Positions 21,620 through 38,770 of a DNA stretch of 39,673 nt are shown one piece after another; position 1 is the stretch's first letter, and every line of letters begins with the position of its first letter. Below the pieces are notes generated by a model, which did no database searches, was not told the origin of the DNA, and was given only the letters and a program-made list of their open reading frames with translations. The stretch comes from a virus (Duplodnaviria > Heunggongvirae > Uroviricota > Caudoviricetes). The position numbers and the translations under genes are program-made. The DNA is taken from the IMG/VR virus record IMGVR_UViG_3300045988_165115, one strand, 5' to 3'.

Positions 21620-22795
21620 ATGGATATAACTTGTTTAGAATGTGGCAATGTTCTTGACGACCCAACTGTAGCTTGCGATAAATGCGGTGCCACGCCTCAT
21701 GTTGTAGTGCTGGGCAAACAATCGTACTTTCCTATTGGTGCTGTAACAGCAAATCTTGAAAAAAATGATTCAAGAGCATTTGATTATCGATTAGGTGAAG
21801 TTTGGGATCTAAAAAATGAAGTCACATCTGAATTCATAACCAGAATTGAGAAAAAATTTAGCCGAAAAAACAAATTTCATAACTTCCTAGACTCAGATCA
21901 CAACCCTTCATCCATTCCTACGATCCTAAAAAAATACATTAATAAAAATAATGAATTCATTGATTTATCTAGAGCTATAATAGAGAAGCTTAAACATAAT
22001 GCTAATAACGAATCGAGAGTTGCCCAACTTCAGGGGGGGAGCGTTGTTTTCATCCACTATAAGTCTACCGAACCAGAGGATTTGGGGAAACTTCTAATCG
22101 TAATGGTTGATAAACAAAGCGCCTATGACTTTGATTCGGATAAGTTGACCCCAACAAGATTAAATCCAATTAATACCGATGCCTTACGGCAGGCTGCGAT
22201 GTTCGATTTAACTTTATTCGAAGCCAGTTATCCAGAAAACAAGGGTGACTCATATGTACATTTCTTGCAAGGTAAATCTAAAAGCGATTTTTTCAAAGAC
22301 TCATTAGGTTGCCGACATGATTCGGACAATAAAAGAAGCATTCAGCAATTATTCAGTGCTATAGATATTTTTGCTAGTAAAAACTCACTCGGTCGTGTAC
22401 TGCGTGATACTATTGACAATGAAGTTAAATCCTTACTGGAAAAAAAATCAAAAGATAAACACGGAAATAAGTCCGTTAAGATAGAGGATATTTCAAAAAT
22501 AATTGACTCATGCCTGACTGATTCACACAAATGTAAGGGAACGTTTGTCGATTTTGTTAATCTTAATGGTTTCCAGATTGACCCTCAATTTGAACCAACT
22601 CCTAAAGCAGCTGAAAGCGCGCTTACAATTGAAGTGGCAGATAACGACAATAATTTTAAGTTGAAAATAATGCGTGGAGCTATTGGAGACGAAAAGTCAA
22701 ATAAGCCTGTAATTCTCACTGACAACAAATGCGAAATTGTGATAAAATTGAGTCAGGCAAATTATGATGAACTCAAAAGATATAGAGACAGCTAA
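21620..22795 (+). CDS. zinc-ribbon plus NdpA/YejK-like (NA37) nucleoid-associated-protein-like domain protein; first gene of the cargo operon
   Basis: N-terminal CxxC-x12-CxxC; central region (GGSVVFIHY...LNPINTD...DLTLFE...YVHFLQGKS...DFFKDSLGC) follows the YejK/NdpA motif pattern as recalled; AT-rich; opposite strand to the late genes. Confidence 0.55.
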   Translation: MDITCLECGNVLDDPTVACDKCGATPHVVVLGKQSYFPIGAVTANLEKNDSRAFDYRLGEVWDLKNEVTSEFITRIEKKFSRKNKFHNFLDSDHNPSSIPTILKKYINKNNEFIDLSRAIIEKLKHNANNESRVAQLQGGSVVFIHYKSTEPEDLGKLLIVMVDKQSAYDFDSDKLTPTRLNPINTDALRQAAMFDLTLFEASYPENKGDSYVHFLQGKSKSDFFKDSLGCRHDSDNKRSIQQLFSAIDIFASKNSLGRVLRDTIDNEVKSLLEKKSKDKHGNKSVKIEDISKIIDSCLTDSHKCKGTFVDFVNLNGFQIDPQFEPTPKAAESALTIEVADNDNNFKLKIMRGAIGDEKSNKPVILTDNKCEIVIKLSQANYDELKRYRDS

Positions 22796-22797
22796 TA

Positions 22798-24012
22798 ATG
22801 ACAATTGCTGATGACTTATCAAGATTAGCGCAGATTATTAACGGAGCCTCAAGCAGAGTTGAGGGCTACTACACTGTCATAAGTCTTGAAGAAAGCATTG
22901 TTATTGTAAATAGTTCTGAAATAATTAGACTGTTACAATCTATAGGTTATAAAAAGGCAACAACCTGCATCGAAAATAATGAAATTTGGCTAGATCGCCA
23001 AGCTTCATCTTGGGATGATGCTATAATTTATGAGAATGTTGAGTCTTTTTGGTCTAGAGTAAACACCCAAAACGCTCTTCCGAAAAATTATATCATCGGA
23101 ACGCCGTTAATACTCCCTACTTCTAAGAATGAAAGCATCGAAAAAATCCATATTTTCTTTATGTGGAAAGATATCCTTTCATTAATTTCTGATCATCATA
23201 ACAGTGACTGCTCTGTCTTATTTTTCACCAATGAAGACAAAAGTTATACAGTCGAACTCACGCATTTTTTACAATATAGCGAGATTAATCGCTTATCGAA
23301 CTCGTCTCTTAAATATGAAATTATAAAGGAGCTTCTCGACACAATAAAAATCAATGATTTACACAAAAGCGAGCGCAAGCTCGTTATACGCTCAGCCATA
23401 AACGAAGTATTTAAAGCAAATGGTACGTTCAATTTCTTTGACTTGCTTAACTCTACTGAACTCGTCAGGAAAAAATATGATGAACTATATGAGATTTACA
23501 CAAAGAGGTTTTCTGTAAATAAAATTCTTAACGAACTCGATGAGAAAAATCTTGAGTTCACGAGTAAAATTAACGAATTCATATCATCTAATCAGACAAA
23601 AGCATTGACTATTCCCGGTGCATTAATAGCAGCTGGTGGCTTAGTGAAGGCTAATGAAACAACCGAAGCAATATTGATTATCGCAGGACTTTGGATGATA
23701 AAAAAAGTCAATTACATTTCTATTGAGATATTCAATGAAACATTCGACAACTTACGTTCTCGAGTGGAGTCCGCTTTCGATAAGTATTTAAAGTTTGAAG
23801 AAAATAAAGAAATCAAAGATAATGCAGATAGTATTAAGAGTAGCATTACAGGTTTGATTGATAAAGCTAAAAAAAGGATGAGAACTGTTAAATATCTCGC
23901 ATCAGCCATGTTTTATGGAGGCCTTATTTACGTTGGATATAAACAGTTCCCAGTCTTTTTTGAAAAATCGGCAGTAAATCTATTTTATTTTTTATGCCAT
24001 ACTATAAGCTAA
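22798..24012 (+). CDS. hypothetical membrane-associated protein, second gene of the cargo operon
   Basis: 404 aa; ATG 2 nt after the upstream stop; hydrophobic segments LTIPGALIAAGGLV, AILIIAGLWMI and YLASAMFYGGLIYVGY; 3' end overlaps the Q 3' end by 21 nt. Confidence 0.55.
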   Translation: MTIADDLSRLAQIINGASSRVEGYYTVISLEESIVIVNSSEIIRLLQSIGYKKATTCIENNEIWLDRQASSWDDAIIYENVESFWSRVNTQNALPKNYIIGTPLILPTSKNESIEKIHIFFMWKDILSLISDHHNSDCSVLFFTNEDKSYTVELTHFLQYSEINRLSNSSLKYEIIKELLDTIKINDLHKSERKLVIRSAINEVFKANGTFNFFDLLNSTELVRKKYDELYEIYTKRFSVNKILNELDEKNLEFTSKINEFISSNQTKALTIPGALIAAGGLVKANETTEAILIIAGLWMIKKVNYISIEIFNETFDNLRSRVESAFDKYLKFEENKEIKDNADSIKSSITGLIDKAKKRMRTVKYLASAMFYGGLIYVGYKQFPVFFEKSAVNLFYFLCHTIS

Positions 24013-26892: not shown

Positions 26893-27542
26893 GCCGCCAT
26901 CTCCCTGACCAGTTTTTCCGCCTGCTGGCGAACCTGTGCCAGAAAGGCCTCACCACATGCCTCAAGTTCATCGCGCCCGATGTAGCTGATTGCCGGTCCC
27001 TTCCAGGTCTTGTCGAAAACAGCAATAGCACCAGCGAAGAAAGCGCCTGTCGGCACCTGCTTCTCATCTTTCGGGATAAACCAGGCAGGCAGTTCAAAAC
27101 CAATACGCCCGCGAATAAAAGCAATATGGTCTGCATCTTCCGGCCACCACACTTCGCTGGTGGCAGCTTTGATCAGGAAAACATAGCGCCCGCCTTTATC
27201 ACGCATGGCACCGGCATGTTTCATGATGTAACGCATGCCGGTGATGTATTGCCCCTCATGCTGACTGGCGCGACTGTATGGGGGATTACCAAAGGCAGCA
27301 CCTTTAAGCTCCGCAAGACGTTCTGACCAGTCATGCGCCAGCGCGTTGTCTTCCGCCGTGTAATACGCGGTACATTTGGCGTTATCACCGTCAGTAAACA
27401 GATCCAGGACAAACGGGCCAAACAGGGTGTTAATTCCCCAGAAAATGTTATCCGGCGTGCGCCACTGATCGCCCACTTCCTTCAGTTCATGGGCTGGTTT
27501 GTTCCGCAGTTCCACCAGCGCCCGGCAATATTTATTACTCAT
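26889..27542 (-). CDS. phage DNA N6-adenine methyltransferase (Dam-like); start set to the internal MSNKYCR
   Basis: NPPY catalytic motif (GNPPYS); TAATG stop/start overlap with the upstream gene at 27542. Confidence 0.75.
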   Translation of the reverse strand: MSNKYCRALVELRNKPAHELKEVGDQWRTPDNIFWGINTLFGPFVLDLFTDGDNAKCTAYYTAEDNALAHDWSERLAELKGAAFGNPPYSRASQHEGQYITGMRYIMKHAGAMRDKGGRYVFLIKAATSEVWWPEDADHIAFIRGRIGFELPAWFIPKDEKQVPTGAFFAGAIAVFDKTWKGPAISYIGRDELEACGEAFLAQVRQQAEKLVREMAA

Positions 27543-28036
27543 TAAGCCCCCACGTAATTCCCTGACAGATACCACTCTTCACCCGATGCAGCGCGCTTGC
27601 TGCTTTTCCGTAAGCACCGCTCACGACGTGCCAGAAAATTGTTTCGTTCTGGCTGGGAGTGGCTTTCACGGAATGCCGCCATCCACACGGTTGCAGCACG
27701 ACGGTATAAGCCCCTTGACTCCAGTTCTTCAGCCTGGCGGGTCAGGCATAAAATCACCCGGGGATCGTTAGTGCCGACATAGAAATTGCGCACAGGTCTG
27801 GTTTCACGAACTGGTTGTGGTTCCGGCTCCTGCGCTCTCTCAGTCAGGCGCGGGAAATGTCTGCGTGTATCTCCTTCACAACGGTGAGCCACACGCCCAC
27901 TCTGACGTAACTTGCTTGCTGACTGCAGAACGCGCTGCCGTGAGTAACCTGCAAAAGCATCCGCAATGTCTCCGGAAGTACAGCCCGGATGGGCTTCAAT
28001 GAATTTCTGAACGTCATTCAAAAGACTCATGCTCAC
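27542..28036 (-). CDS. hypothetical regulator, winged-helix-like N-terminus and PerC-like C-terminal segment (tentative)
   Basis: 164 aa; C-terminal LESRGLYRRAATVWMAAF resembles the PerC family signature as recalled; overlaps the replication gene stop. Confidence 0.35.
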   Translation of the reverse strand: MSMSLLNDVQKFIEAHPGCTSGDIADAFAGYSRQRVLQSASKLRQSGRVAHRCEGDTRRHFPRLTERAQEPEPQPVRETRPVRNFYVGTNDPRVILCLTRQAEELESRGLYRRAATVWMAAFRESHSQPERNNFLARRERCLRKSSKRAASGEEWYLSGNYVGA

Positions 28037-28974
28037 CCCCTGAATCCTGCCGGGATCTGGCTGTAGTCCACATTGTCGTAACTGGCTTTGAAGTACGGGT
28101 CTTCGCGTTTTTCTGTGTACGTGCTGACGGACGGCGATAAGCGCAGGGAAAGCTCATCCCATTTTTCCCGCAGCTTCGACGGGCTGAGCACGTTACGGCA
28201 CCAGAACGGATCGCGGCTGACGCGGCTGTACATCTCGCAGATTTGTTTGTGAGTACGACCATCCTGCACACACATCAGGCGAATTTCGTTTGCCCAGGCT
28301 GTCCAGTTCGGTTCTTTGGGACGAACCACCTCGCCGTCACATTCGGCAGCCTGCTCGTACAGGGCGATGATTTTTTTCCAGAGCCACTGTGCGCAGGTCA
28401 AATCATCCTGCGTCCCCCACTGGCGCTTTTTAGGGCTGAATACAACCGCATCAGGATGGCGAGTTAAAAAATCCTGTTCAGCCGTCTGCGTGTCCGGTTG
28501 CGAAGCGTCCGGACGAGAAGTTTTTTTATCTGACGGATCATGTTTTGATTTTACTGACGGATCCCCGCCAGATTCTGACGGGTGAAAACCCGCTTTTTTG
28601 CCAGATTTCGACGCATCAAATTTTGACGGGTCAGATTTTGATGCGTCAGATTTTGACGGGTCAGAATCTGACAGTTGAGAAAATGCCGCTGCCTGAAGCT
28701 TCGCAACGTTAAGCTGATAAACATTCGACGCATTGCGGTTACCCTGGCGACGCGCCTTACGCGTTAACCAGCCTTCTGCTTCCAGCCGTGCGATAGCCGT
28801 TCTGACGGTACTCATCCCCGCGCCAATCTGACGGGCAATGGTTTTAATTGATGGCCAGCACACACCTTCGTCATTACTGAAATCAGCCAGGCGGGCCATA
28901 ATTGCCACGCTGGATAACTTCATGCCTGATGCAGCGCAACCATCCCATACATAGCCGGTTAATTTAGTGCTCAT
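28033..28974 (-). CDS. replication initiator / replisome organiser (lambda O-like) with internal iterons
   Basis: 313 aa; winged-helix N-terminus, a central SDPSKSDASKSDPSKFDASKS repeat encoded by the DNA iterons, and a conserved C-terminal domain. Confidence 0.7.
   Translation of the reverse strand: MSTKLTGYVWDGCAASGMKLSSVAIMARLADFSNDEGVCWPSIKTIARQIGAGMSTVRTAIARLEAEGWLTRKARRQGNRNASNVYQLNVAKLQAAAFSQLSDSDPSKSDASKSDPSKFDASKSGKKAGFHPSESGGDPSVKSKHDPSDKKTSRPDASQPDTQTAEQDFLTRHPDAVVFSPKKRQWGTQDDLTCAQWLWKKIIALYEQAAECDGEVVRPKEPNWTAWANEIRLMCVQDGRTHKQICEMYSRVSRDPFWCRNVLSPSKLREKWDELSLRLSPSVSTYTEKREDPYFKASYDNVDYSQIPAGFRG
28528..28678. repeat. iteron array, putative replication origin inside the initiator gene
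   Basis: At least six direct repeats of about 15 bp, consensus CAGATTTTGACGGG, at 28569, 28601, 28616, 28631, 28646 and 28661, the last four with a 15-bp period. Confidence 0.7.
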
Positions 28975-28983
28975 GACCGACCT

Positions 28984-29322
28984 CTATTTCCCTGAATTTA
29001 CGACGAAACTGTTCGAGCGGACTGAAGCATTCATGCTCATAACCTTCGCGGAGGTAGATAACCCGTTGTGTTTCCGGCTCCCAACGAATGACTCTGACGG
29101 GCACTCCGTAGTGATCTTTGAACCAGCGGTTAACTTGTCGCAAAGGACTGTCTCCTTCTGCCGGTTGAAATCACCCACAGCCCACTCTGCAAAGCTGTGG
29201 GTTACAATTTCCCTGTCACCTGGTACATTCACTGCATAGCAATATTCCACCTTCGCTTTTCCACCCGGTACCGGAAGCGCAATCAGTTGCGAGCGACGGT
29301 AGTGTGTTGTTAAACTGTTCAT
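28984..29322 (-). CDS. hypothetical early-operon protein, positional equivalent of e14 ymfM
   Basis: 112 aa between the YmfL-like gene and the replication initiator. Confidence 0.4.
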
Positions 29323-29876
29323 GCGTTAGTTTCTCCACAACCAGAAGCAATCGACGCCACGACGCCCGGAGCTGCACACTCGCGGGCGTCATTACTTTCT
29401 GAAATGCAAAAAATTTTGTAGACAAGTGCTGCATGCTCCTGCAGCTTCGAAATTGAGAGATACAGCTCGTCGTTAATTGCTGTCTTCTCATGCGGTTCCA
29501 CTACACCGTCTTCGATTGCTGAACGAATCTGTTTTGAATAACTGCCGATCTGTTCAATGACTTCCAGCAGACGCTGGTTAATATCGGCGTTGTCCACATC
29601 CTCGACGTCAGGAAGAGACACAAAGACGCCATTTGCAGACTGCGCCACAGCATCAGCAATGAAGTGAGTGCCACCAGCACGCTGTAAAACCATTGCCCAT
29701 CCCAGCGGGAAAATCTGATCGCCATCTGCACGAAGGCGGTTGAATAAAGCGTTTTCTGTTACATCGAGCCAGTCAGCCGCTTCAGCGTAACCACCCGGCA
29801 ACGCCGCGATAGTTTTTCTGACAGCTTTCACGTACCACTCAGGCTGTTTTTCTATTTTCCAGTGATGCTTACCCAC
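29319..29876 (-). CDS. hypothetical early-operon protein, positional equivalent of e14 ymfL / lambda cII
   Basis: 185 aa directly downstream of cro with overlapping stop/start. Confidence 0.45.
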
Positions 29877-30129
29877 GGTTCACCTCCTGTTCCTGTGGTT
29901 TAAACCCATTCTGATTTTGGCTAGATTGAAAACGTGCCGGATAAAGAATCTGCATTTCGCTGACTTCACCCTTAAAAAAATTGGCTAAACGTTCTGCAAG
30001 CTCGATAGATGGAATCTGCTCCAGCCTCTCAATACGACTCAACGTCGCTGGATTGACTTGAACACCCGCAGCAACATGCTGCAAAGTGAAACCATGCGCC
30101 TTACGCACATTTCGTAATGGTGATTGCAT
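29869..30129 (-). CDS. Cro-like HTH (XRE-family) regulator
   Basis: 86 aa; helix-turn-helix LQHVAAGVQVNPATLSRIE; divergent from the cI-like repressor across a 97-bp operator region. Confidence 0.8.
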   Translation of the reverse strand: MQSPLRNVRKAHGFTLQHVAAGVQVNPATLSRIERLEQIPSIELAERLANFFKGEVSEMQILYPARFQSSQNQNGFKPQEQEVNRG

Positions 30130-30140
30130 ATACCCTCCAA

Positions 30141-30226
30141 ATATTGCGCGTTATGCATGTTATTTCACGCAATTATTTTGCGCAAGTTGATTTGCTTATC
30201 ACGCAATAAAGAAATGTAATAAACGC
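30141..30226. promoter_or_regulatory. cI/cro divergent operator-promoter region with repeated TTGCG/CGCAA half-sites
   Basis: Half-sites at 30144 (TTGCGCG), 30166 (CACGCAA), 30178 (TTGCGCAA) and 30200 (CACGCAA); 15-bp palindrome CGCAATTATTTTGCG at 30168-30182. Confidence 0.6.
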
Positions 30227-30919
30227 ATGAACATAGGAAACCGAGTCAGACAACTTCGCCAAGCGAAGAACATGAAAATCGCCGATCTCGCTGAAGCAAT
30301 AGGAGTAGATGCGGCGAACATCTCGCGCTTAGAAACGGGTAAGCAAAAACAATTTACCGAACAAACACTGAGTAATATTGCCAAGAGCTTAGGTGTTGAT
30401 ATTGCTGATCTCTTTACCTCTGCCCTCAAAAGTAATACTGTATATAAAAACAGTAATAATGAGGATGTTGCGCAGGTGAAGGATGTGTTCCGTATTGAAA
30501 TGCTGGATATCAGTGCCAGTGCGGGAAATGGCCTTATCCAGGGCGGTGATGTCATTGATGTGATTCATGCCATCGAATACAGAACTGATAATGCTGTATC
30601 AATGTTCGGCGGACGACCAGCCAATCACATCAAAGTTATCAACGTTCGTGGGGACAGTATGTGTCCAACCATTGAGCCAGGAGATCTCATCTTCGTTGAT
30701 GTCAGCATCAATCAGTTTGATGGTGATGGTATATATGTCTTTGGTTTTGATGACAAAATATACGTTAAAAGACTTCAAATGATTCCTGACAAACTGCTGG
30801 TGATTTCTGATAACCAGATTTACCGTGAATGGGGAATTACTAGCGAAAACGAACACCGATTCATGGTCTTTGGAAAGGTCTTAATCAGTCAGTCGCAAAC
30901 CCTTAAGAGACATAATTAA
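30227..30919 (+). CDS. CI-like prophage repressor (HTH_XRE plus S24 LexA-like autopeptidase)
   Basis: N-terminal HTH (NMKIADLAEAIGVDAANISRLETGK) and C-terminal S24 motifs (GDSMCPTIEPGDLIFVD ... KRL). Confidence 0.9.
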   Translation: MNIGNRVRQLRQAKNMKIADLAEAIGVDAANISRLETGKQKQFTEQTLSNIAKSLGVDIADLFTSALKSNTVYKNSNNEDVAQVKDVFRIEMLDISASAGNGLIQGGDVIDVIHAIEYRTDNAVSMFGGRPANHIKVINVRGDSMCPTIEPGDLIFVDVSINQFDGDGIYVFGFDDKIYVKRLQMIPDKLLVISDNQIYREWGITSENEHRFMVFGKVLISQSQTLKRHN

Positions 30920-30938
30920 CCTCAATATCCCATCCATC

Positions 30939-30963
30939 GGCCACCGAAAGGTGGCTTTTTATT
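30939..30963 (+). terminator. rho-independent terminator downstream of the repressor gene
   Basis: GCCACC-GAAA-GGTGGC hairpin followed by TTTTTATT. Confidence 0.75.
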
Positions 30964-31196
30964 ACCCATCATTTTGCATATATCGCAATATTACTTGCAT
31001 ATCTCGCAATTTAATTTTATCTTTTGTTCCAGACCAACTACAGGATTACAACAAAATCTGGTTGCAAAACGGTGCATGTGTCGTAAGCGGTCAGTAAATG
31101 TCAAAAACGAACAGGCAGGACGCCCACGAAGTAGCAGCCTGGGGCATATGAAGTCCAGGATGATTCGTTAGCGGATGATTTCAGTGGAGAGAATAG

Positions 31197-31505
31197 ATGA
31201 ATGAGCAGGATTTGAAGCATGTGATCGCATTGTTGCTGGAAGACGCTAAACGTTTGCAGCAGATAGAGCCAAATGCAGGCACTGAGGCCCGTATTTTGTT
31301 AGCAAAACAGGCATTAAAGACTTGCGAGGCGCAAGACCCTGATCGAACCAAGTTCATGAATTTCATGGCTAACACGATCACCCCACTGCCATGCAATGGA
31401 GAGAGGGTGAGCCGTGTTTATCACGACACAATGGTTAAGGCATTAAGAATCGAGCTTGATGGGCTTAGGCGTAAGATCGTGATGAACAAAATCGTTGCCA
31501 ACTAA
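31197..31505 (+). CDS. hypothetical protein, positional equivalent of e14 ymfJ
   Basis: 102 aa; GGAGA Shine-Dalgarno 6 nt upstream of the ATG. Confidence 0.5.
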   Translation: MNEQDLKHVIALLLEDAKRLQQIEPNAGTEARILLAKQALKTCEAQDPDRTKFMNFMANTITPLPCNGERVSRVYHDTMVKALRIELDGLRRKIVMNKIVAN

Positions 31506-31784
31506 GGAAGCAGACGGAAGTAAGCATGCGCTTTGTTCAAATTTGCAGACAAATATATTTGCGTCAACACCAGCACTGTTAGCAATGGAAAAAGTTTGAT
31601 CAAGGATTTGTTGGCAGTTCATTGTGCTTTTGAGGATATATCCCTCTGGAATCAGTCTGCAGCAGCTATCGTCAGACTCTTTGATTGTTTTCTGGTACAG
31701 AAAGTTAAGCATTAATTCTTCAAATTTTTTGGTCTGTTCGGCTGTTGCTTCAAACAGACGAACGTGAACATAAAACTGGTTCAT
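31443..31784 (-). CDS. hypothetical protein, positional equivalent of e14 ymfI; start set to the internal MNQFYV
   Basis: AAGGAAA Shine-Dalgarno upstream of the internal ATG; convergent 3' overlap with the 31197 gene. Confidence 0.45.
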   Translation of the reverse strand: MNQFYVHVRLFEATAEQTKKFEELMLNFLYQKTIKESDDSCCRLIPEGYILKSTMNCQQILDQTFSIANSAGVDANIFVCKFEQSACLLPSASLVGNDFVHHDLTPKPIKLDS

Positions 31785-32063
31785 TAGGTTTCCTTGCTGG
31801 CTGTGTGAGAACTCCAGCATACCACCGAGCCTGAAGTGGTGAAAAGACAGGCAATAGTTTCATTGCTGTGTGTAGTCCTGGCGGTACCAGTTTGTACCCT
31901 TGCTTCCGGCTGGTACCGCTCTTTTTACAAAACAGAGAAGAGCATCACCGGACGACGGGCTCATAACCCAATCCATCCGGGCGGCTGCCACCGCAGGTGT
32001 TCTTCTCTGTTTTGTGGAGAAACCAACCGACCTTGCAGGGTCGATATGATGAGGAGCAGCAAA

Positions 32064-32426
32064 ATGGCTAGCGAACGCGGTACTGATGTGCAGGCATTTA
32101 TCGGGGAGCTGGACGGCGGCGTATTTGAAACCAAAATCGGCGCAGTTCTCAGTGAAGTCGCTTCCGGTGTGATGAACACGAAAACCAAAGGTAAGGTCTC
32201 ACTCAACCTGGAAATCGAACCATTTGATGAGAACCGTGTGAAAATCAAACACAAACTCTCATATGTTCGCCCGACTAACCGCGGGAAAATTTCCGAAGAA
32301 GACACCACCGAAACGCCGATGTATGTCAATCGCGGTGGGCGCCTGACTATTCTGCAGGAAGACCAGGGACAATTACTGACTCTTGCCGGTGAGCCTGACG
32401 GAAAACTCCGCGCAGCAGGTCATTAA
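32064..32426 (+). CDS. YfdP-like prophage protein; start set to the internal MASERG
   Basis: GAGGAG Shine-Dalgarno 7 nt upstream of the ATG at 32064; the longer ORF from 31836 has a poor N-terminus. Confidence 0.5.
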   Translation: MASERGTDVQAFIGELDGGVFETKIGAVLSEVASGVMNTKTKGKVSLNLEIEPFDENRVKIKHKLSYVRPTNRGKISEEDTTETPMYVNRGGRLTILQEDQGQLLTLAGEPDGKLRAAGH

Positions 32427-32491
32427 TATCGTTCTTAATTAACTGATTATTTACCTCATCACTGAATATCTTTATATAGTGAGGACTTATT

Positions 32492-33316
32492 ATGTCTCAG
32501 AACTTAGACGCAACCGCAATTAATCAAATCCATGCCCTTATTTCTGCTCAGGGTGTTAATGAAATTATCAGTAAGATTGGTGCCGACGCAGTGGCATTAC
32601 CTGAAAATTTCCGCATTCATGATCTGGAAAAATTTAATTTAAATCGCTTCCGTTTCCGTGGCGCGCTTTCCACTGCCTGCATCGATGACTTTACCCGTTA
32701 TTCTAAAGATCTTGCAGATGAAGGCACCCGCTGCTTTATCGATGCCGATAATATGCGTGCCGTCAGTGTTCTTAACCTGGGTACTATTGATGAACCAGGT
32801 CACGCAGATAATACCGCCACTCTCAAACTGAAAAAGACAGCACCGTTCTCTGCACTGTTGTCTGTTAACGGCGAGCGTAACTCCCAGAAGTCACTGGCAG
32901 AATGGATTGAAGACTGGGCCGACTACCTTGTGGGCTTTGATGCTAATGGTGACGCCATTCAGGCAACCAAAGCGGCTGCGGCGATCCGTAAAATCACAAT
33001 TGAAGCGAACCAGACTGCTGATTTTGAAGACAATGACTTCAGCGGCAAACGCTCCCTGATGGAGTCTGTCGAAGCGAAGACCAAAGACATTATGCCAGTG
33101 GCATTTGAATTTAAATGCGTTCCGTTTGAAGGCCTGAAAGAACGTCCGTTTAAATTACGCCTCAGCATTATCACTGGCGATCGTCCTGTACTGGTACTAC
33201 GCATTATTCAGCTGGAAGCAGTGCAGGAGGAAATGGCTAACGAATTTCGTGATCTGCTTGTTGATAAATTCAAAGACAGCAAAGTAGAAACCTTTATTGG
33301 TACTTTCACCGCCTGA
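32492..33316 (+). CDS. YfdQ-like (DUF2303-like) prophage protein
   Basis: 274 aa; same size and neighbourhood as CPS-53 yfdQ as recalled. Confidence 0.5.
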
Positions 33317-33444
33317 TTTCATTACTGCAAATGCCCCTGCGGGGGCATTTATGGAAACGTAATTGACTCAATAATCGCCTGATGGCGAGGGTTTTCTTTA
33401 ACCAAAATTCAGCGCGGTGCAGCGCATATAACGTGGAGAACAAA

Positions 33445-33981
33445 ATGTCATTTATTAAAACTTTTTCTGGGAAGCATTTTTATTATGACAAGATAAATAA
33501 AGACGACATCGTTATTAACGATATCGCGGTTTCCCTTTCAAATATCTGCCGCTTTGCAGGACACCTTTCACACTTCTATAGCGTCGCCCAACATGCGGTG
33601 CTTTGCAGCATGCTGGTACCGCAGGAATTTGCTTTTGAAGCATTAATGCATGATGCAACAGAAGCGTATTGCCAGGACATCCCCGCAGCACTGAAACGCC
33701 TTCTTCCTGACTATAAACGGATGGAAGAAAAAATAGACGCCGTAATCCGTGAGAAATACGGGTTACCTCAGGCTATGAGCACGCCCGTGAAATATGCCGA
33801 TCTCATCATGCTGGCAACCGAACGCCGCGATCTCGGGCTTGATGATGGCTCTTTCTGGCCAGTATTGGAAGGTATCCCGGCAACAGAGATGTTCGAAGTT
33901 GTTCCTCTGGCTCCTGGCCATGCCTACGAGATATTTATGGAACGTTTTAAAGAGCTGCATAAGATACATAAGCAATCCTGA
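33445..33981 (+). CDS. HD-domain hydrolase, YfdR-like 5'-deoxynucleotidase
   Basis: HD motifs (SVAQHA ... LMHDATEAYCQD); GGAGAA Shine-Dalgarno upstream of the ATG at 33445. Confidence 0.6.
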   Translation: MSFIKTFSGKHFYYDKINKDDIVINDIAVSLSNICRFAGHLSHFYSVAQHAVLCSMLVPQEFAFEALMHDATEAYCQDIPAALKRLLPDYKRMEEKIDAVIREKYGLPQAMSTPVKYADLIMLATERRDLGLDDGSFWPVLEGIPATEMFEVVPLAPGHAYEIFMERFKELHKIHKQS

Positions 33982-34021: not shown

Positions 34022-34282
34022 ATGAGGTTATCAAAAATGCTTCAAATGCTGACACTTGAGGAATGGGCTGCGGAAAAATTTAGGAGTAATCCTCCAAGTG
34101 TGTCCACATTGCGTCGTTATGCTAAGCAGAATTTATTTTGTCCACCAGCAATGAAACAAGGTCGACTCTGGCGAGTACGTGAGGACGCAGAGTTAGTTGG
34201 GGAATTAGTTACTCCAGTAATCAAGAAAAGTGATTCTATTATTCTGCAAAGGATTTTAAGCAATGGCAGCCAGACCACGTAA
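34022..34282 (+). CDS. xis: excisionase (lambda Xis-like); start uncertain, alternative ATGs at 34037 and 34046
   Basis: LTLEEWAAEKFRSNPPSVSTLRRYAKQNLFCPPAMKQGRLW parallels lambda Xis; overlaps the int start. Confidence 0.7.
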   Translation: MRLSKMLQMLTLEEWAAEKFRSNPPSVSTLRRYAKQNLFCPPAMKQGRLWRVREDAELVGELVTPVIKKSDSIILQRILSNGSQTT

Positions 34283-35390
34283 AAATAATGTTTCAGTACC
34301 TAACTTGTATCCGCTTTATAGTAGAAAAGTAAATAAAGTCTATTGGCGATATAAGCATCCAGTGACCGGGAAATTTCATTCGTTGGGCACAAATGAAGCT
34401 GAAGCTATTGCTATTGCCACTGAAGCTAACACTCGTCTGGCTGAGCAAAGAACCCGGCAGATTCTAGCTATCAGTGATAGGATCGCAACCAGCAAAGGAA
34501 AAGCGATCACAACGTCAACCTGGTTAGATCGCTATCAAGCGATCCAGGATGACAGGCTCAAAAGTGGTGATATAAGACTCAACACCTATAAGCAAAAAGC
34601 TAAACCAGTATCCTTGCTCAGAGAACGAGCAGGAATGAAGTTGATCTCATCCGTTGATGTTAGAGATATAGCACAATTGCTTGATGAGTATATTGCAGCT
34701 GGACAGCCTAGAATGGCCCAAGTCGTTAGGTCTGTATTGATCGATGTGTTTAAGGAAGCACAGCATTATGGCGAAGTTCCGCCAGGGTATAACCCTGCTC
34801 TTGCGACGAAGCAACCCAAAAGAAAAATTACCCGTCAACGCCTCAGCCTGGAAGAATGGCAAAAAATATTCGATATAGCAGACGCCAGTCATCGTTACAT
34901 GGGAAATGCCATGCTCCTAGCTTTGGTCACTGGGCAGCGTTTGGGAGATATATCCAAAATGAAATTTAGTGATATTTGGGAAGATCATCTTCACGTCATT
35001 CAGGAAAAGACTGGAAGCAAAATCGCTATCCCTCTTTCTCTTCGCCTCAATGCGATTAACTGGAGTTTACGCGATGTAATAGCCCGCTGCCGTGACTATG
35101 CAGTCAGCCCATACCTAGTGCATTTTTTCCGTTCAACTTCACAAGCAGAACGTGGGGCACAGGTTAAATCCAATACATTGACGATGAACTTTAGTAAAGC
35201 GAGAGATTTAGCAGGAATTGACTGGGGTGATGGCTCACCCGCAACATTCCATGAACAAAGATCGTTATCTGAACGCCTGTACAAGGAGCAAGGGATAGAT
35301 ACCAGAAAGCTACTTGGGCATAAAACACAACAACAAACCGATCGTTACCATGATGACCGAGGGAAAGGTTGGAGCAAAGTAGCTTTGTGA
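34263..35390 (+). CDS. int: tyrosine site-specific integrase, lambda Int family
   Basis: 375 aa; catalytic-region motifs (LALVTGQRLGDISKMKFSD; HEQRSLSERLY; LLGHKTQQQTDRYHDDRG) align with lambda Int. Confidence 0.9.
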   Translation: MAARPRKNNVSVPNLYPLYSRKVNKVYWRYKHPVTGKFHSLGTNEAEAIAIATEANTRLAEQRTRQILAISDRIATSKGKAITTSTWLDRYQAIQDDRLKSGDIRLNTYKQKAKPVSLLRERAGMKLISSVDVRDIAQLLDEYIAAGQPRMAQVVRSVLIDVFKEAQHYGEVPPGYNPALATKQPKRKITRQRLSLEEWQKIFDIADASHRYMGNAMLLALVTGQRLGDISKMKFSDIWEDHLHVIQEKTGSKIAIPLSLRLNAINWSLRDVIARCRDYAVSPYLVHFFRSTSQAERGAQVKSNTLTMNFSKARDLAGIDWGDGSPATFHEQRSLSERLYKEQGIDTRKLLGHKTQQQTDRYHDDRGKGWSKVAL

Positions 35391-35600: not shown

Positions 35601-36716
35601 TTAAATTAAATCAAATAGCCCATGTTCATCTATAGCCTTTGAACTAATTAAGTTCGCGGCTTCTATGTCATTGTCACTTGCCTCAGAAATAAGGAAAAAT
35701 GAATCAACATGATTTTGCAAAATAATTTCCTTATACTTCTTGAGCCATTGTAATTTACCTGTAGTGAACAATACTTTACGCGGTAGCAAAATACGGCTAA
35801 AAACTGATGGAAGATACTCACTTCTATTAAATGGAATAAAAGGGTCGCCTAAAGAAAGAATAGTTAGACGATTAAATTCACCGTGCGAATTCAATTTTTC
35901 AGCTGATTTGGCTATACCACTTGGTAAAAAAACACCTGTCTTGATACCGTTGCGTAAAGCAACAACAGCCATCATTTTATCAAAGGCAGTACCTCCAAAT
36001 AATAAGGAATATCCTTTTTTAACAGAAAGATCAATAGTATCAAGAACAACTTGTTTTTCTATATCACTTGGTGACGTGCTCGAAATTATCGAAAGATCAA
36101 AATCAGTAAATAACTGCCCAGTATAATAAAGATTTTTGCCGGTGAAAGTTGACAACTTTAAAGGAAACATTTTATCATCATGCTTAATTTCAGATACATT
36201 AAGATCTGTTAAGGATGGATAGTTAAAGTTTGGTGAGGCTTTTCCGTGTTTATTATTTTTTGATGCCTGCGGACTAAAAACTAGAATTTCATTTTTATTA
36301 TTACACAGGTAATCCTGTATCATTTTTTTTACAATATCCCAATCAAGACCACCGTGACCACAACCTAAAGCTGGCAGGGTGATTGTTTTTCCATGTTTAT
36401 TATCCAAATATTTCGAGAGCCAATGCAGTCCTTTTTCGATATATTCGTACTTAGACTTATTTCTCCAATGATCCTTGGTGGGAAAGTTTATGATTTCTAT
36501 TTCCTTACCATACGTATCATTACCTTTCCAAACAGCTGGTCTTCCTGGAGATATTTCTCCTTTTTTACACAGCAATACGTATTCATTATACATTTCAGGA
36601 AACTTATTCTTAAAAGCAAAAGCAACCCCTGCCCCCATTACACCAACACAATTAACTGTATTAATTCTAATGTCAGCAGCATAATCGAAAAAATCACCAT
36701 CAACATATCTAATCAT
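35601..36716 (-). CDS. macrodomain protein (TARG1/DarG-type) with a C-terminal Rossmann/SLOG-like domain; candidate DarG-like partner
   Basis: Start set at MIRYVDG, preceded by AAGGAGG; macro motifs GDFFDYAADIRINTVNCVGVMGAGVAFAFKNKF and LPALGCGHGGLDW resemble TARG1/DarG; C-terminal LLFGGTAFDKMMAVVA glycine-rich loop; AT-rich. Confidence 0.6.
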   Translation of the reverse strand: MIRYVDGDFFDYAADIRINTVNCVGVMGAGVAFAFKNKFPEMYNEYVLLCKKGEISPGRPAVWKGNDTYGKEIEIINFPTKDHWRNKSKYEYIEKGLHWLSKYLDNKHGKTITLPALGCGHGGLDWDIVKKMIQDYLCNNKNEILVFSPQASKNNKHGKASPNFNYPSLTDLNVSEIKHDDKMFPLKLSTFTGKNLYYTGQLFTDFDLSIISSTSPSDIEKQVVLDTIDLSVKKGYSLLFGGTAFDKMMAVVALRNGIKTGVFLPSGIAKSAEKLNSHGEFNRLTILSLGDPFIPFNRSEYLPSVFSRILLPRKVLFTTGKLQWLKKYKEIILQNHVDSFFLISEASDNDIEAANLISSKAIDEHGLFDLI

Positions 36717-37186
36717 AAAACCTCCTTTGGTCAGAGTATACATCCTTATTTCTGGCTCTTCAATTCTATTGTCAAAAACTTTTACAAAGTCTGCATCAGT
36801 AAAACTGATGGCGCATTTTAAAATTAAAATCAATATGTCCATATCAAACGTTATATTTGTTATTTTTTGTATTTATTATTCATATCCATCATGTGCTATT
36901 AAATCGCCCAAAAGAACATAATAAATTATGTGCACCACTTTCTTCTTATTGAATTTTGGATTACATTACGATCTAAATTAGATCTTTTGCCAATATCATA
37001 AACATATGCAGCAAACGTTGCAACAAGCTGTTCTCATTCTAACAGTTAGTAGAATATAAACTCTGTAATTAGCACACTGAATTCCCTTCATCTATGAGTT
37101 ACAACATCCTTTAAGTGAATAGTATTGTTAGTTTAAATCTATTAATATCATTCATAAAACTATTTTATATAGTTAAAGTCATTATA

Positions 37187-37214
37187 AATCCATCTGAATA
37201 TATACAGATGGATT
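37187..37214. repeat. perfect 10-bp inverted repeat in the intergenic gap between the DarT-like and macro genes
   Basis: AATCCATCTG - 8-nt loop - CAGATGGATT. Confidence 0.5.
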
Positions 37215-37423
37215 CTGCCAATAGTCTTTGCAGGTGAAGTGCATGTTATATATTTTTTAGGGAATATATTTTCTAATTATTTCTCAGATAAAAATTTGCA
37301 GAACGAAATTACTTTACATAATACCGAATGTTACAGATTATTTTATTGCATATAAGCATTGAACTAACCACTATCACAGTGACTATGTTAATCATAAAAT
37401 CTGCATCAAATTCAAAAAGCTCC

Positions 37424-38770
37424 TCATAAACTGTTCCCCTGCAATCTTTGGAGAACTTCATCCCGGAGATCATCGATCCCGTCAGAAACCTGAGCTAACC
37501 AAACTTGACTTAATGAGCCAATATCAGCCTTACTTAGGGCTACTAACATATTGATATCTTCAGAAGATGTAACTATATCGAACAACTGATTTTTATTCCT
37601 CCCTTTAGCTACTATTTCCCCCAATAAATCATCATACGTAACTAACATCATTATTTTTCTAACTAGATCGGTTTGTATGACTGGCAGATCTTCTGTCAAA
37701 ATTCGTTGTAGCATCGCAAGTGACTTCCTAGGATGCTCTCCATCTGCCTCATGCATGTAATTATTATTCCAACGTGTTTTAGGCCCTTTGCCTATATCAT
37801 GCAAATAAGCGGCCAACTCCAAAACTTCCTGATGAATAGAGTCTAATTGATAAAACTCTGGTGAATTAACTACAAGACTAGCCACTCGTCGACTATGAGA
37901 GCCAACATCTTCATTATGAGGCCCGTAGCTCGTCCCCAATCCATCGATATCTTCAAGCTCTTGGATGGAGGAGAAATTACCACGAATTGCACTTAGAGCA
38001 TCACTAATACTTTGAAATTTTGGCCTCGTTTCTCGTTGAAATGAAGTTACATATTCAATAGCTTCATCAAAAAGCATTTTTAACACTACCGGTCCCGTGA
38101 CTAAGGATGAGGACCAGTTTCCAGGTTGATAATAATAATGTTGAAAATCACCCTCAACAATATTTGGTGGAACAATACCTTTGTTCTGGAAAATACTCCT
38201 CACAATATCAGACATAGAACGATTCCATGTAATTATCTGATTTATTTCGCTTAAAGAGACATGATCTGGCAGCAAAAGTTCTGCCATCTTTTTATGCCTC
38301 TGAGTCTCGTCAGCATAACCCCATGCATTATTATCTATGGTAGCCCAATCTAATACATCAAGCTGGTCAGCTTGAGTATTACCAGAATAAAAGTTCGGTG
38401 GATTAACTGTATTTGCGGAAGCATCTGTAAAATATGACCCATTCCTTGTTTCGAGTGATAATATAGAAACTGAAAGATAGATAATAAATTGCTGATCTAC
38501 ATTTTTTTTATGAAGAACAGACAATTGCATGGGCGTTTTTTTTGCAAAATAAAAAGGAACATAATCATGAACACAACGACCATTCGTATTAGGCACCTGC
38601 ATCACTGCCCTACGCCCCTGTATTCCTTCATCAGCAACATTCACATGTGATATACGACGTGCAATTTTCTGATTAGTCGAAAACAGCCCAGTTTCAATTA
38701 TTGATTCAAGATTATCTACTGACGTAAAGTGATATGCATTTCGGTGTCTATGGTGAACAGGAACTGTCAT
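37424..38770 (-). CDS. DarT-like (DUF4433) DNA ADP-ribosyltransferase domain fused to a C-terminal HD phosphohydrolase domain
   Basis: N-terminal YHFTSVDNLESIIETGL, HDYVPFYFAKKTPM, YFTDASANT and AELLL match DarT motifs including the catalytic glutamate position; C-terminal H...LHDIGKG HD signature; GGGGGA Shine-Dalgarno upstream. Confidence 0.6.
   Translation of the reverse strand: MTVPVHHRHRNAYHFTSVDNLESIIETGLFSTNQKIARRISHVNVADEGIQGRRAVMQVPNTNGRCVHDYVPFYFAKKTPMQLSVLHKKNVDQQFIIYLSVSILSLETRNGSYFTDASANTVNPPNFYSGNTQADQLDVLDWATIDNNAWGYADETQRHKKMAELLLPDHVSLSEINQIITWNRSMSDIVRSIFQNKGIVPPNIVEGDFQHYYYQPGNWSSSLVTGPVVLKMLFDEAIEYVTSFQRETRPKFQSISDALSAIRGNFSSIQELEDIDGLGTSYGPHNEDVGSHSRRVASLVVNSPEFYQLDSIHQEVLELAAYLHDIGKGPKTRWNNNYMHEADGEHPRKSLAMLQRILTEDLPVIQTDLVRKIMMLVTYDDLLGEIVAKGRNKNQLFDIVTSSEDINMLVALSKADIGSLSQVWLAQVSDGIDDLRDEVLQRLQGNSL

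Follow-up and report, generated by a model that had tools for sequence, protein, structure and literature searches.

Genes and features of the yfd locus

The genes yfdP, yfdQ and yfdR lie in an e14/SfV-like lambdoid prophage at icd, between a cI-like repressor gene and xisE-intE, and occupy positions 32064-33981 on the (+) strand of the window (the whole 39,673-nt stretch of DNA analysed here), with a Shine-Dalgarno-like sequence before each. The features of this part of the prophage are as follows:

30227..30919, (+) strand: cI-like prophage repressor (HTH and S24 peptidase; Pfam Peptidase_S24 6e-19, HTH_3/HTH_26)
30939..30956, (+) strand: intrinsic-terminator-like hairpin directly 3' of the repressor gene (GGCCACCGAAAGGTGGCT, then TTTTATT)
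30974..31009, no strand assigned: two tandem operator-like palindromes, 21 bp apart (TTGCATAT(A/C)TCGCAA)
31197..31505, (+) strand: ymfJ-like small early gene, 102 aa (ORF; PHROG 12693; RefSeq hypothetical protein)
31443..31784, (-) strand: ymfI, antisense (NCBIfam YmfI_phage, 161.6 bits against a cut-off of 140; RefSeq coordinates)
32064..32426, (+) strand: yfdP, 120 aa (98% identical to K-12 b2359)
32492..33316, (+) strand: yfdQ, 274 aa, single-domain DUF2303 (PF10065, 2.9e-91; 99% to K-12 b2360)
33330..33349, (+) strand: GC-rich stable hairpin in the 128-nt yfdQ-yfdR spacer (AATGCCCC-TGCG-GGGGCATT)
33445..33981, (+) strand: yfdR, 178 aa, predicted HD-superfamily phosphohydrolase of the Atu1052/YfdR subfamily (92% to K-12 b2361)
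34022..34282 (RefSeq start 34037), (+) strand: xisE-type excisionase (Pfam Exc 1.8e-12; RefSeq xisE)
34263..35390, (+) strand: intE-type tyrosine integrase at the prophage end, adjoining icd (Arm-DNA-bind_1 2e-37, Phage_integrase 1.4e-17)

The preliminary description had recognized these genes as the CPS-53 yfdP-yfdQ-yfdR block and had placed them between the repressor and xis, and both assignments hold. By BLASTP the proteins align with those of K-12 CPS-53 over nearly their full length (YfdP: 118/120 identical, E 3e-89; YfdQ: 271/274; YfdR: 162/176, E 1e-126), and the K-12 DNA is 96% identical to the window across 32045-33953; these matches are far beyond chance. All three genes, with unchanged order and strand, make up b2359-b2361 of CPS-53 (KplE1) and orf32-orf31-orf30 of SfV, which matches the window at 96% DNA identity. 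E. coli A42 and S87 contain this very prophage at 100% identity. In K-12 and SfV the block runs on into yfdS and yfdT, whereas in the window yfdR is separated by a 40 nt gap from xis and int, which come directly after the block, an arrangement found in 2 of 80 related IMG/VR loci. The last ~9 codons of yfdR differ from those of K-12 as a result of a mosaic joint at 33953. A further difference lies upstream, where the immunity region is intact in the window but has been lost from K-12.

The block is present in 3102 of 5426 complete E. coli genomes (57%) and in 56 phage records, its carriers including SfV, SfIV and Stx phages, and a Casjens-type survey places the cluster in early-left operons (PMC12315714). 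The observation is confirmed; given near-identical copies in K-12 and carriage by the majority of complete E. coli genomes, the genes are already known and ordinary. They are named, annotated in RefSeq and treated in the literature as a frequent early-left cluster of lambdoid phages, and the finding carries little weight as a discovery.

The repressor gene, named XRE family regulator in RefSeq, has the same orientation as the yfd block. Downstream of its terminator-like hairpin the palindrome copies, at 30974-30988 and 30995-31009, carry zero and one mismatch, and a related site is found at 30192-30206 in the cI-cro intergenic region. The tandem palindromes are probably OL operators that mark the start of the early-left operon. 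A sigma-70 consensus scan resolved no convincing promoter for the yfd block or at these sites, and thus we infer both the operator role of 30974..31009 and a pL-dependent expression of the block. Between the palindromes and yfdP, the 3' ends of ymfJ and the antisense ymfI overlap. The yfdQ-yfdR spacer has a predicted folding energy of -39.7 kcal/mol (z = -2.45) and contains a second hairpin (33375-33388); the hairpin at 33330..33349 could terminate transcription weakly or mark the edge of a module. The mechanical open reading frame of yfdR begins at 33382; the start at 33445 is favoured by RefSeq and by a GGAG 6 nt before the ATG. Rfam (at the gathering threshold) and tRNA scans of the whole window gave no matches.

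The yfdP-yfdQ pair and the independent HD gene

The three genes, which had been presented as one block, are two separate units, an adjacent yfdP-yfdQ pair and an independently distributed HD gene, and this is the new point of the analysis. Adjacency of yfdP and yfdQ is seen across phages of Escherichia, Vibrio, Pseudomonas, Xanthomonas and Acinetobacter. A match to the YfdP HMM lies directly upstream of yfdQ in all eight diverse phages examined, and yfdP takes the same position in 4/4 prophage loci and in 10 further records found in both tblastn lists. The numbers of phage records detected by tblastn (181 for YfdQ, 180 for YfdP) and the taxon counts are nearly equal. YfdR-like HD genes occur in 328 phage records with another distribution, that of Bacillus, Caulobacter, Rhizobium and Stenotrophomonas phages, and are common in large virulent phages, which points to nucleotide metabolism and away from a DnaA-specific role. 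In six of the eight phages examined, which infect Gammaproteobacteria, the pair is within or adjoins DNA replication/recombination genes, with annotated neighbours that comprise SSB, RecT/exonuclease, DnaQ-like exonuclease, DNA helicase, DUF2800/DUF2815 and PolA. The exceptions are LPPA56, in which all neighbours are unnamed, and LLS, in which the pair comes after the repressor. The pair is also present in Xanthomonas MET23-P3 and Vibrio D71, with no repressor or integrase seen in the stretch examined.

The likeness of YfdQ to DUF2303, put forward in the preliminary description, is borne out by the family model (PF10065), which scores 305.9 bits against a cut-off of 26.6 and covers residues 7-272 of 274. 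The DUF2303 family comprises 1861 clusters at 50% identity. Domain fusions were sought as functional hints among the best 150 of the 1861 representatives, and almost all of these proteins stand alone, with lengths of 265-285 aa. The sole YfdQ entry in the PDB, 9o7m ('YfdQ Protein'), matches YfdQ residues 16-273 (E 2.4e-44); it is a DUF2303 protein like the window YfdQ (~38% identity), is near-identical to the YfdQ of Xanthomonas phage MET23-P3 and contains 36 chains of one sequence. A literature search for a paper behind 9o7m found none. In a PDB set that does not include 9o7m, the AlphaFold2 model of YfdQ (pLDDT 76) gave no match below E 0.1 (best 0.15, TM ~0.3 or lower), and a BFVD search returned other DUF2303 proteins and nothing else. 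The idea that YfdQ is a DNA mimic was dropped, since its pI of 4.8-5.5 indicates mild acidity only.

YfdP, a 13-kDa protein, is predicted to fold as a long N-terminal helix followed by a three-strand β-meander (AlphaFold2, pLDDT 82), and all of its listed homologues carry PF27127. Nothing significant was found when the model was compared with the PDB (best E 0.011, TM ~0.3 or lower); matches to NTF2-like, CaMKII-hub and SnoaL folds were weak and were distrusted. YfdP and YfdQ, strictly paired, widespread and without fold relatives in these searches, are worth attention.

YfdR as an outlying HD subfamily

The final claim about the genes themselves, that the last one encodes an HD-superfamily phosphohydrolase, agrees with the HD metal-binding set, which is intact in the window YfdR (H50, H69-D70, D119). 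Within the YfdR family (n=31) H50, H69 and D119 are invariant and D70 is kept in at least 90% of members, which matches the H...HD...D pattern that defines the superfamily of HD-domain metal-dependent phosphohydrolases (Aravind and Koonin, 1998). Profile searches supported the assignment in part. YfdR matches PHROG 318 ('deoxyribonucleoside 5' monophosphate phosphatase') at 3e-104, whereas against the Pfam YfbR-like model PF12917 it scores 20.8-21.2 bits, below the gathering score of 25.9, and no NCBIfam model was matched at threshold (match E 0.0095). Weak PF12917 matches occur in 25 of the 31 family members. Membership in the superfamily is instead supported transitively, in that the YfdR family profile matches PDB 2gz4 (E 2.8e-17) and 2gz4 in turn passes PF12917 (28.6 bits). 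We thus describe YfdR as an outlying HD subfamily on the strength of these profile comparisons. The nearest solved structure is that same entry, Agrobacterium Atu1052, which aligns over the full length with the R-[FW], H, HD and D positions kept; Atu1052 is a chromosomal, alphaproteobacterial protein solved by structural genomics, whereas YfdR is phage-borne.

The K-12 orthologue b2361 is annotated in RefSeq as a 5'-deoxynucleotidase, and YfbR, the E. coli 5'-deoxynucleotidase (dCMP phosphohydrolase, PF12917, PDB 2paq), is an HD-superfamily protein of a size similar to that of YfdR. The two have in common the HD dyad, a Glu at +3 and an Asp at +8, such that the motif HDAtEayCqD of YfdR aligns with HDAsEvltgD of YfbR and YfdR E73 and D78, kept in at least 90% of the family, align with YfbR E72 and D77. 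The roles of these two YfbR residues reportedly go back to Zimmerman et al. 2008. Full-length homology is absent, the alignment being confined to 36-40 residues round the HD dyad (BLASTP E 0.002, hhalign probability 41%), and for this reason the substrate specificity of YfbR is not transferable to YfdR. YfdR further differs from YfbR in that it is phage-borne, the K-12 protein binds DnaA and its reported nucleotide affinity is low, much below that of YfbR (Zimmerman et al. 2008, as cited in PMC4776307).

K-12 YfdR binds domain I of DnaA in a Phe46-dependent manner and competes with DiaA and DnaB, and initiation at oriC is inhibited when YfdR and YfdQ are overproduced together with YfdS or YfdT (PMC4776307, PMC5448010). 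DnaA domain I binding with oriC inhibition on joint overproduction is the sole demonstrated cellular activity of these proteins. All of these functional results were obtained by overexpressing the K-12 genes in multicopy, and the effect could be an artefact according to the authors; deletion of yfdQRST has no replication phenotype, and yfdQ with yfdR fails to suppress hda-185 when yfdS and yfdT are absent (PMC4776307). A tblastn search of the window with K-12 YfdS and YfdT gave no match at E <= 0.01, and the window therefore lacks the inhibitory cluster of Noguchi and Katayama (2016), which consists of yfdQ and yfdR with yfdS or yfdT. As these two genes are missing, this copy may give rise to only part of the phenotype seen on overexpression in K-12. 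Whether YfdR acts in infection by catalysis or by DnaA binding is a question worth attention.

Possible roles in infection

We see about an even chance that the region is an accessory part of the early-left operon, composed of two units, in which YfdR and YfdQ act via host DnaA/DnaB replication. The operon would be under the control of the repressor and the genes silent in the lysogen, while repressor cleavage would lead to transcription of the yfd genes together with xis-int. The products would then damp or redirect DnaA/DnaB-dependent host replication in favour of the phage, much as lambda P binds DnaA, and YfdR would hydrolyse nucleotides in a secondary or regulatory capacity. A report that overproduction of YfdQ gives rise to plaques from a co-resident phage (bioRxiv 10.1101/413146) counts in favour. 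The authors of PMC4776307 make the same comparison, which takes in lambda P and the genes of the lambda exo-xis region as examples of early lambdoid functions that bind to DnaA or interfere with initiation in the host. The DnaA domain contacted differs, being domain III for lambda P and domain I for YfdR, the sequences are unrelated, and any similar part played by yfdQ and yfdR during infection would be by analogy. The antisense ymfI and the hairpins, which interrupt the operon, count against this explanation, as does the dispensability of yfdP for hda-185 suppression (PMC4776307), which fits poorly with strict yfdP-yfdQ pairing.

A more tentative proposal, which we think rather unlikely, gives the central place to the pair, with yfdP-yfdQ a self-contained two-protein device in which a large YfdQ homo-oligomer and its obligate partner YfdP would, in many Proteobacteria phages, influence either the machinery of replication or the choice between lysis and lysogeny, with YfdR as the enterobacterial addition through which the device is linked to DnaA. 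If true, the device would represent a previously undescribed class of phage replication modulators, as a property of the family and not of this copy. An HD gene that evolves separately from yfdP-yfdQ would also suit a YfdR that is mainly a dNMP phosphatase and, on early expression, alters deoxynucleotide pools for takeover or superinfection exclusion, with yfdP and yfdQ as unrelated passengers. That use of YfdR, suggested in the preliminary description, is possible, though not the one with the best support, and we consider it unlikely. The intact HD set, the Glu and Asp shared with YfbR after the dyad, the annotation of the K-12 orthologue, the PHROG 318 match and the spread of homologues through large lytic phages with their own nucleotide metabolism are all consistent with it. 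Against these stand the short YfbR alignment and the demonstrated DnaA binding, and such an enzyme would presumably drain precursors needed by the phage itself. An exclusion phenotype is not reported in the literature found, and PADLOC-DB 2.0, a library of defence and not anti-defence models, gave no match for YfdP, YfdQ or YfdR at E <= 0.01.

The same PADLOC result, with the same restriction to defence models, bears on the suggestion that yfdP-yfdQ, with or without yfdR, is a DNA-transaction or counter-defence system (a recombination mediator, nuclease inhibitor or anti-restriction system) that replaces a missing Rec module. The ORFs and RefSeq annotation of the early-left operon in this phage include no exo/bet/gam-type genes, the pair adjoins SSB, RecT/exonuclease, DnaQ-like exonuclease or PolA in most phages examined, and the mild acidity of YfdQ and the 36 chains of 9o7m would also suit such a system. 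However, ArgO145 has the cluster together with a complete Rec module and a recombination role was judged unlikely (PMC12315714), the proteins show no likeness in fold or sequence to known recombinase, Gam, Ocr or Ard proteins, and we regard the suggestion as distinctly improbable. Our inspection of the ArgO145 locus confirms that the cluster lies alongside the complete Rec module, and a hidden Rec module was rejected on this counter-example. Least probable in our estimate, and indeed very doubtful, is a moron-like module that benefits the lysogen, in which low expression from the prophage would help the host to withstand oxidative, acid or alkylation stress, for instance through delayed replication initiation. 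Deletion of CPS-53, yfdQ or yfdS sensitizes K-12 to H2O2 and deletion of yfdQ also to MMS (both as cited in PMC4776307), and retention of the block in 57% of complete E. coli genomes extends to the decayed CPS-53. These K-12 phenotypes were obtained with a prophage that lacks the immunity region (window 28741 to 32045 missing), a loss that makes K-12 expression not representative, whereas in intact prophages the genes lie 3' of the repressor gene and operator-like sites and in line with xis-int, which is a lytic early position. The occurrence of the pair in MET23-P3 and D71 may likewise argue against this reading.

The yfdP, yfdQ and yfdR genes and their surroundings

Three plus-strand open reading frames between a cI-like repressor gene and xisE encode proteins with 98% (YfdP), 99% (YfdQ) and 92% (YfdR) identity to those of CPS-53, the cryptic prophage of E. 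coli K-12. Since the gene positions, the K-12 identities and the flanking repressor and xisE/intE all match, the yfdP/yfdQ/yfdR-like block noted in the preliminary description is confirmed.

Features of the region, in window coordinates
30227-30919, cI-like repressor gene (S24/HTH), upstream of yfdP
30939-30956, terminator of the repressor gene, upstream of yfdP
30974-31009, two operator-like palindromes, TTGCATAT(A/C)TCGCAA, upstream of yfdP
Upstream of yfdP, plus strand, ymfJ-like gene
Upstream of yfdP, minus strand, ymfI, an antisense gene
32064-32426, plus strand, yfdP, 120 aa, Shine-Dalgarno-like sequence in front
32492-33316, plus strand, yfdQ, 274 aa, Shine-Dalgarno-like sequence in front
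33445-33981, plus strand, yfdR, 178 aa, Shine-Dalgarno-like sequence in front

The yfdQ-yfdR spacer (128 nt) contains two hairpins, and yfdR is followed after a 40-nt gap by xisE, intE and then icd; neither yfdS nor yfdT was found in the window. The convergent ymfJ (+) and ymfI (-) genes overlap at their 3' ends by 63 nt (31443-31505) inside the presumed early-left transcript, and pL transcription would run antisense to ymfI.

CPS-53 aligns with the window at yfdN/yfdO (27276-28741) and at yfdPQR (32045-33953, at 96% in DNA), while the intervening 3.3 kb (28741-32045), comprising DUF4222, cII-like ymfL, cro, cI, ymfJ and ymfI, is missing, with the deletion joint 19 bp in front of yfdP. The entire immunity region has thus been lost from the cryptic K-12 prophage. 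The block itself is already known, and its finding is not new. A 2.5-kb stretch of the region is present in 3102 of 5426 complete E. coli genomes and in 56 phage records, including SfV, SfIV, mEp460 and Stx2c phages; the two 100% matches, E. coli strains A42 and S87, already carry the RefSeq labels yfdP, yfdQ, yfdR, xisE and intE. Among 80 closely related IMG/VR loci the presence of yfdS and yfdT varies, and the order yfdR-xisE-intE occurs in two.

The yfdP-yfdQ pair and the separate HD gene

Judged by sequence comparison, the block is made up of two modules, a yfdP-yfdQ pair and a YfdR-like HD gene. In tblastn searches of 50,697 phage records YfdQ was found in 181 and YfdP in 180, with nearly equal counts by taxon (YfdQ/YfdP: Escherichia 53/52, Stx2a 26/26, Stx2c 15/15, Xanthomonas 15/15, Vibrio 32/27, Pseudomonas 5/5). 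The reading frame directly 5' of yfdQ matched the YfdP HMM in every locus examined: in all eight diverse phages (ArgO145, VvAW1, LPPA56, MET23-P3, D71, 24E30.2, LLS and Acinetobacter 4316; E 1e-24 to 1e-64, and a spacing of 15-63 nt in the seven phages measured), in Klebsiella, Xenorhabdus and Yersinia prophages, and in ten more records common to both tblastn lists. Identity of the two proteins to those of the window drops in parallel, from 59%/51% (YfdP/YfdQ) in ArgO145 to 32%/38% in MET23-P3. Annotated neighbours of the pair in six of the eight phages include SSB, RecT/exonuclease, DnaQ-like exonucleases, DNA helicase, DUF2800/DUF2815 or DNA polymerase I; those in LPPA56 are all unnamed hypothetical proteins, and in LLS the pair comes after the repressor. 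YfdR-like proteins, in contrast, are distributed differently: the 328 phage records that contain them include Bacillus, Caulobacter, Rhizobium and Stenotrophomonas phages, and such a gene lies near the pair in only two of the eight diverse phages. Enterobacterial prophages usually have the triad, one copy being truncated. The Xenorhabdus yfdR homologue (L093:3900-4202) is cut to 100 aa, stopping ~30 residues past the HD dyad, and the DUF2303 gene of Acinetobacter phage 4316 (L090:3486-4335) is split into two overlapping reading frames; both point to decay or frameshifting among relatives.

The YfdQ family (DUF2303) forms 1861 clusters at 50% identity and, among the best 150 of the 1861 representatives, consists nearly entirely of single-domain proteins of 265-285 aa. 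A solved entry, PDB 9o7m ('YfdQ Protein', 36 chains), has a Xanthomonas-phage-type sequence almost the same as the DUF2303 protein of MET23-P3 (L086:4010-4834); no publication behind it was found. The AF2 model of YfdQ (pLDDT 76) had no fold match in a PDB copy that did not contain 9o7m, and in BFVD retrieved DUF2303 proteins only, one of them from a Gordonia phage. The YfdP model (pLDDT 82) places a long helix against a three-strand meander, and its fold search gave nothing significant. None of the three proteins matched a PADLOC model. Several Xanthomonas and Vibrio phage YfdP homologues (e.g. L086:3580-3954) carry the name 'translation elongation factor', which looks like a propagated misannotation because neither the YfdP sequence nor its predicted fold supports it.

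YfdR and the role of the block

The HD metal-binding set of YfdR is intact: across 31 family members H50, H69 and D119 never vary and D70 is kept in 90% or more. A match at 3e-104 was obtained to PHROG 318, 'deoxyribonucleoside 5' monophosphate phosphatase'. The window protein nevertheless scores 21 bits on Pfam YfbR-like (PF12917; threshold 25.9), and an NCBIfam search gave no model at threshold. A Glu and an Asp behind the HD dyad have aligned counterparts in YfbR, whereas the two proteins can be aligned over only ~36-40 residues (hhalign probability 41%). By its sub-threshold scores and short YfbR alignment YfdR is an outlier within the HD superfamily. Among solved structures the nearest is that of the uncharacterised protein Atu1052 (2gz4), which the family profile hits at E 2.8e-17. 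Since Atu1052 itself passes the PF12917 threshold, there is transitive support for placing YfdR in the HD clan.

All experimental data on these proteins come from the K-12 versions. Purified YfdR binds DnaA, with DnaA Phe46 (domain I) important for binding, while its nucleotide affinity is far below that of YfbR and its function was called elusive (Noguchi and Katayama, PMC4776307). Initiation at oriC is inhibited in vivo by multicopy yfdQ and yfdR together with yfdS or yfdT, and in vitro by extracts; yfdQR alone is insufficient, yfdP is dispensable, and deletion gives no replication phenotype. The same authors proposed that the genes served the ancestral phage in the manner of lambda P (PMC4776307). 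According to a preprint (10.1101/413146), YfdQ overproduction in BW25113 leads to plaque formation by a resident phage.

The evidence fits best with a composite accessory module of the early-left region, which would be silent in the lysogen and switched on along with xis-int once the prophage is induced. Both the YfdP-YfdQ pair and YfdR, a DnaA-binding HD hydrolase, would then act on the replication or DNA metabolism of the host. The preliminary description had instead proposed a deoxynucleotidase that could reshape nucleotide pools for takeover or exclusion. This interpretation is supported in part: its HD protein and K-12 yfdPQR genes stand, and pool reshaping by YfdR is possible, but the basis for it consists of family membership and a weak reported activity, and the genes fall into two modules. 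The block may alternatively benefit the lysogen, although the phenotypes in question come from a decayed K-12 prophage without the immunity region (window 28741-32045). The yfdP-yfdQ pair may also have a hidden recombination or counter-defence role, but no test run here favours this directly; a published account lists two genes of the cluster as without known function and judged a recombination module unlikely (PMC12315714).

Other gene pairs in the window

Beyond the integrase, between intE and icd, lies a DarT/DarG-like pair of low GC (32-39%; 35601-38770, minus strand). One gene product (448 aa) joins DarT (PF14487, 5e-40) to an HD domain (PF01966) at its C-terminus; the other (413 aa) carries a DarG-like macro domain (PADLOC 7e-58), and its C-terminal half is uncharacterised. 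The pair occupies this site in only seven complete E. coli genomes; in strain A42 a Sll1717-family P-loop ATPase is found in its place. A two-gene insert (21620-24012, plus strand, GC 33-37%), on the strand opposite to its neighbours, has the Q antiterminator on one side and the holin/Rz lysis genes on the other. Its products are a nucleoid-associated protein of NA37/YejK type (391 aa; PF04245, 1e-23) and a 404-aa protein for which Pfam and PADLOC gave no match; the insert resembles a moron or candidate defence cargo.
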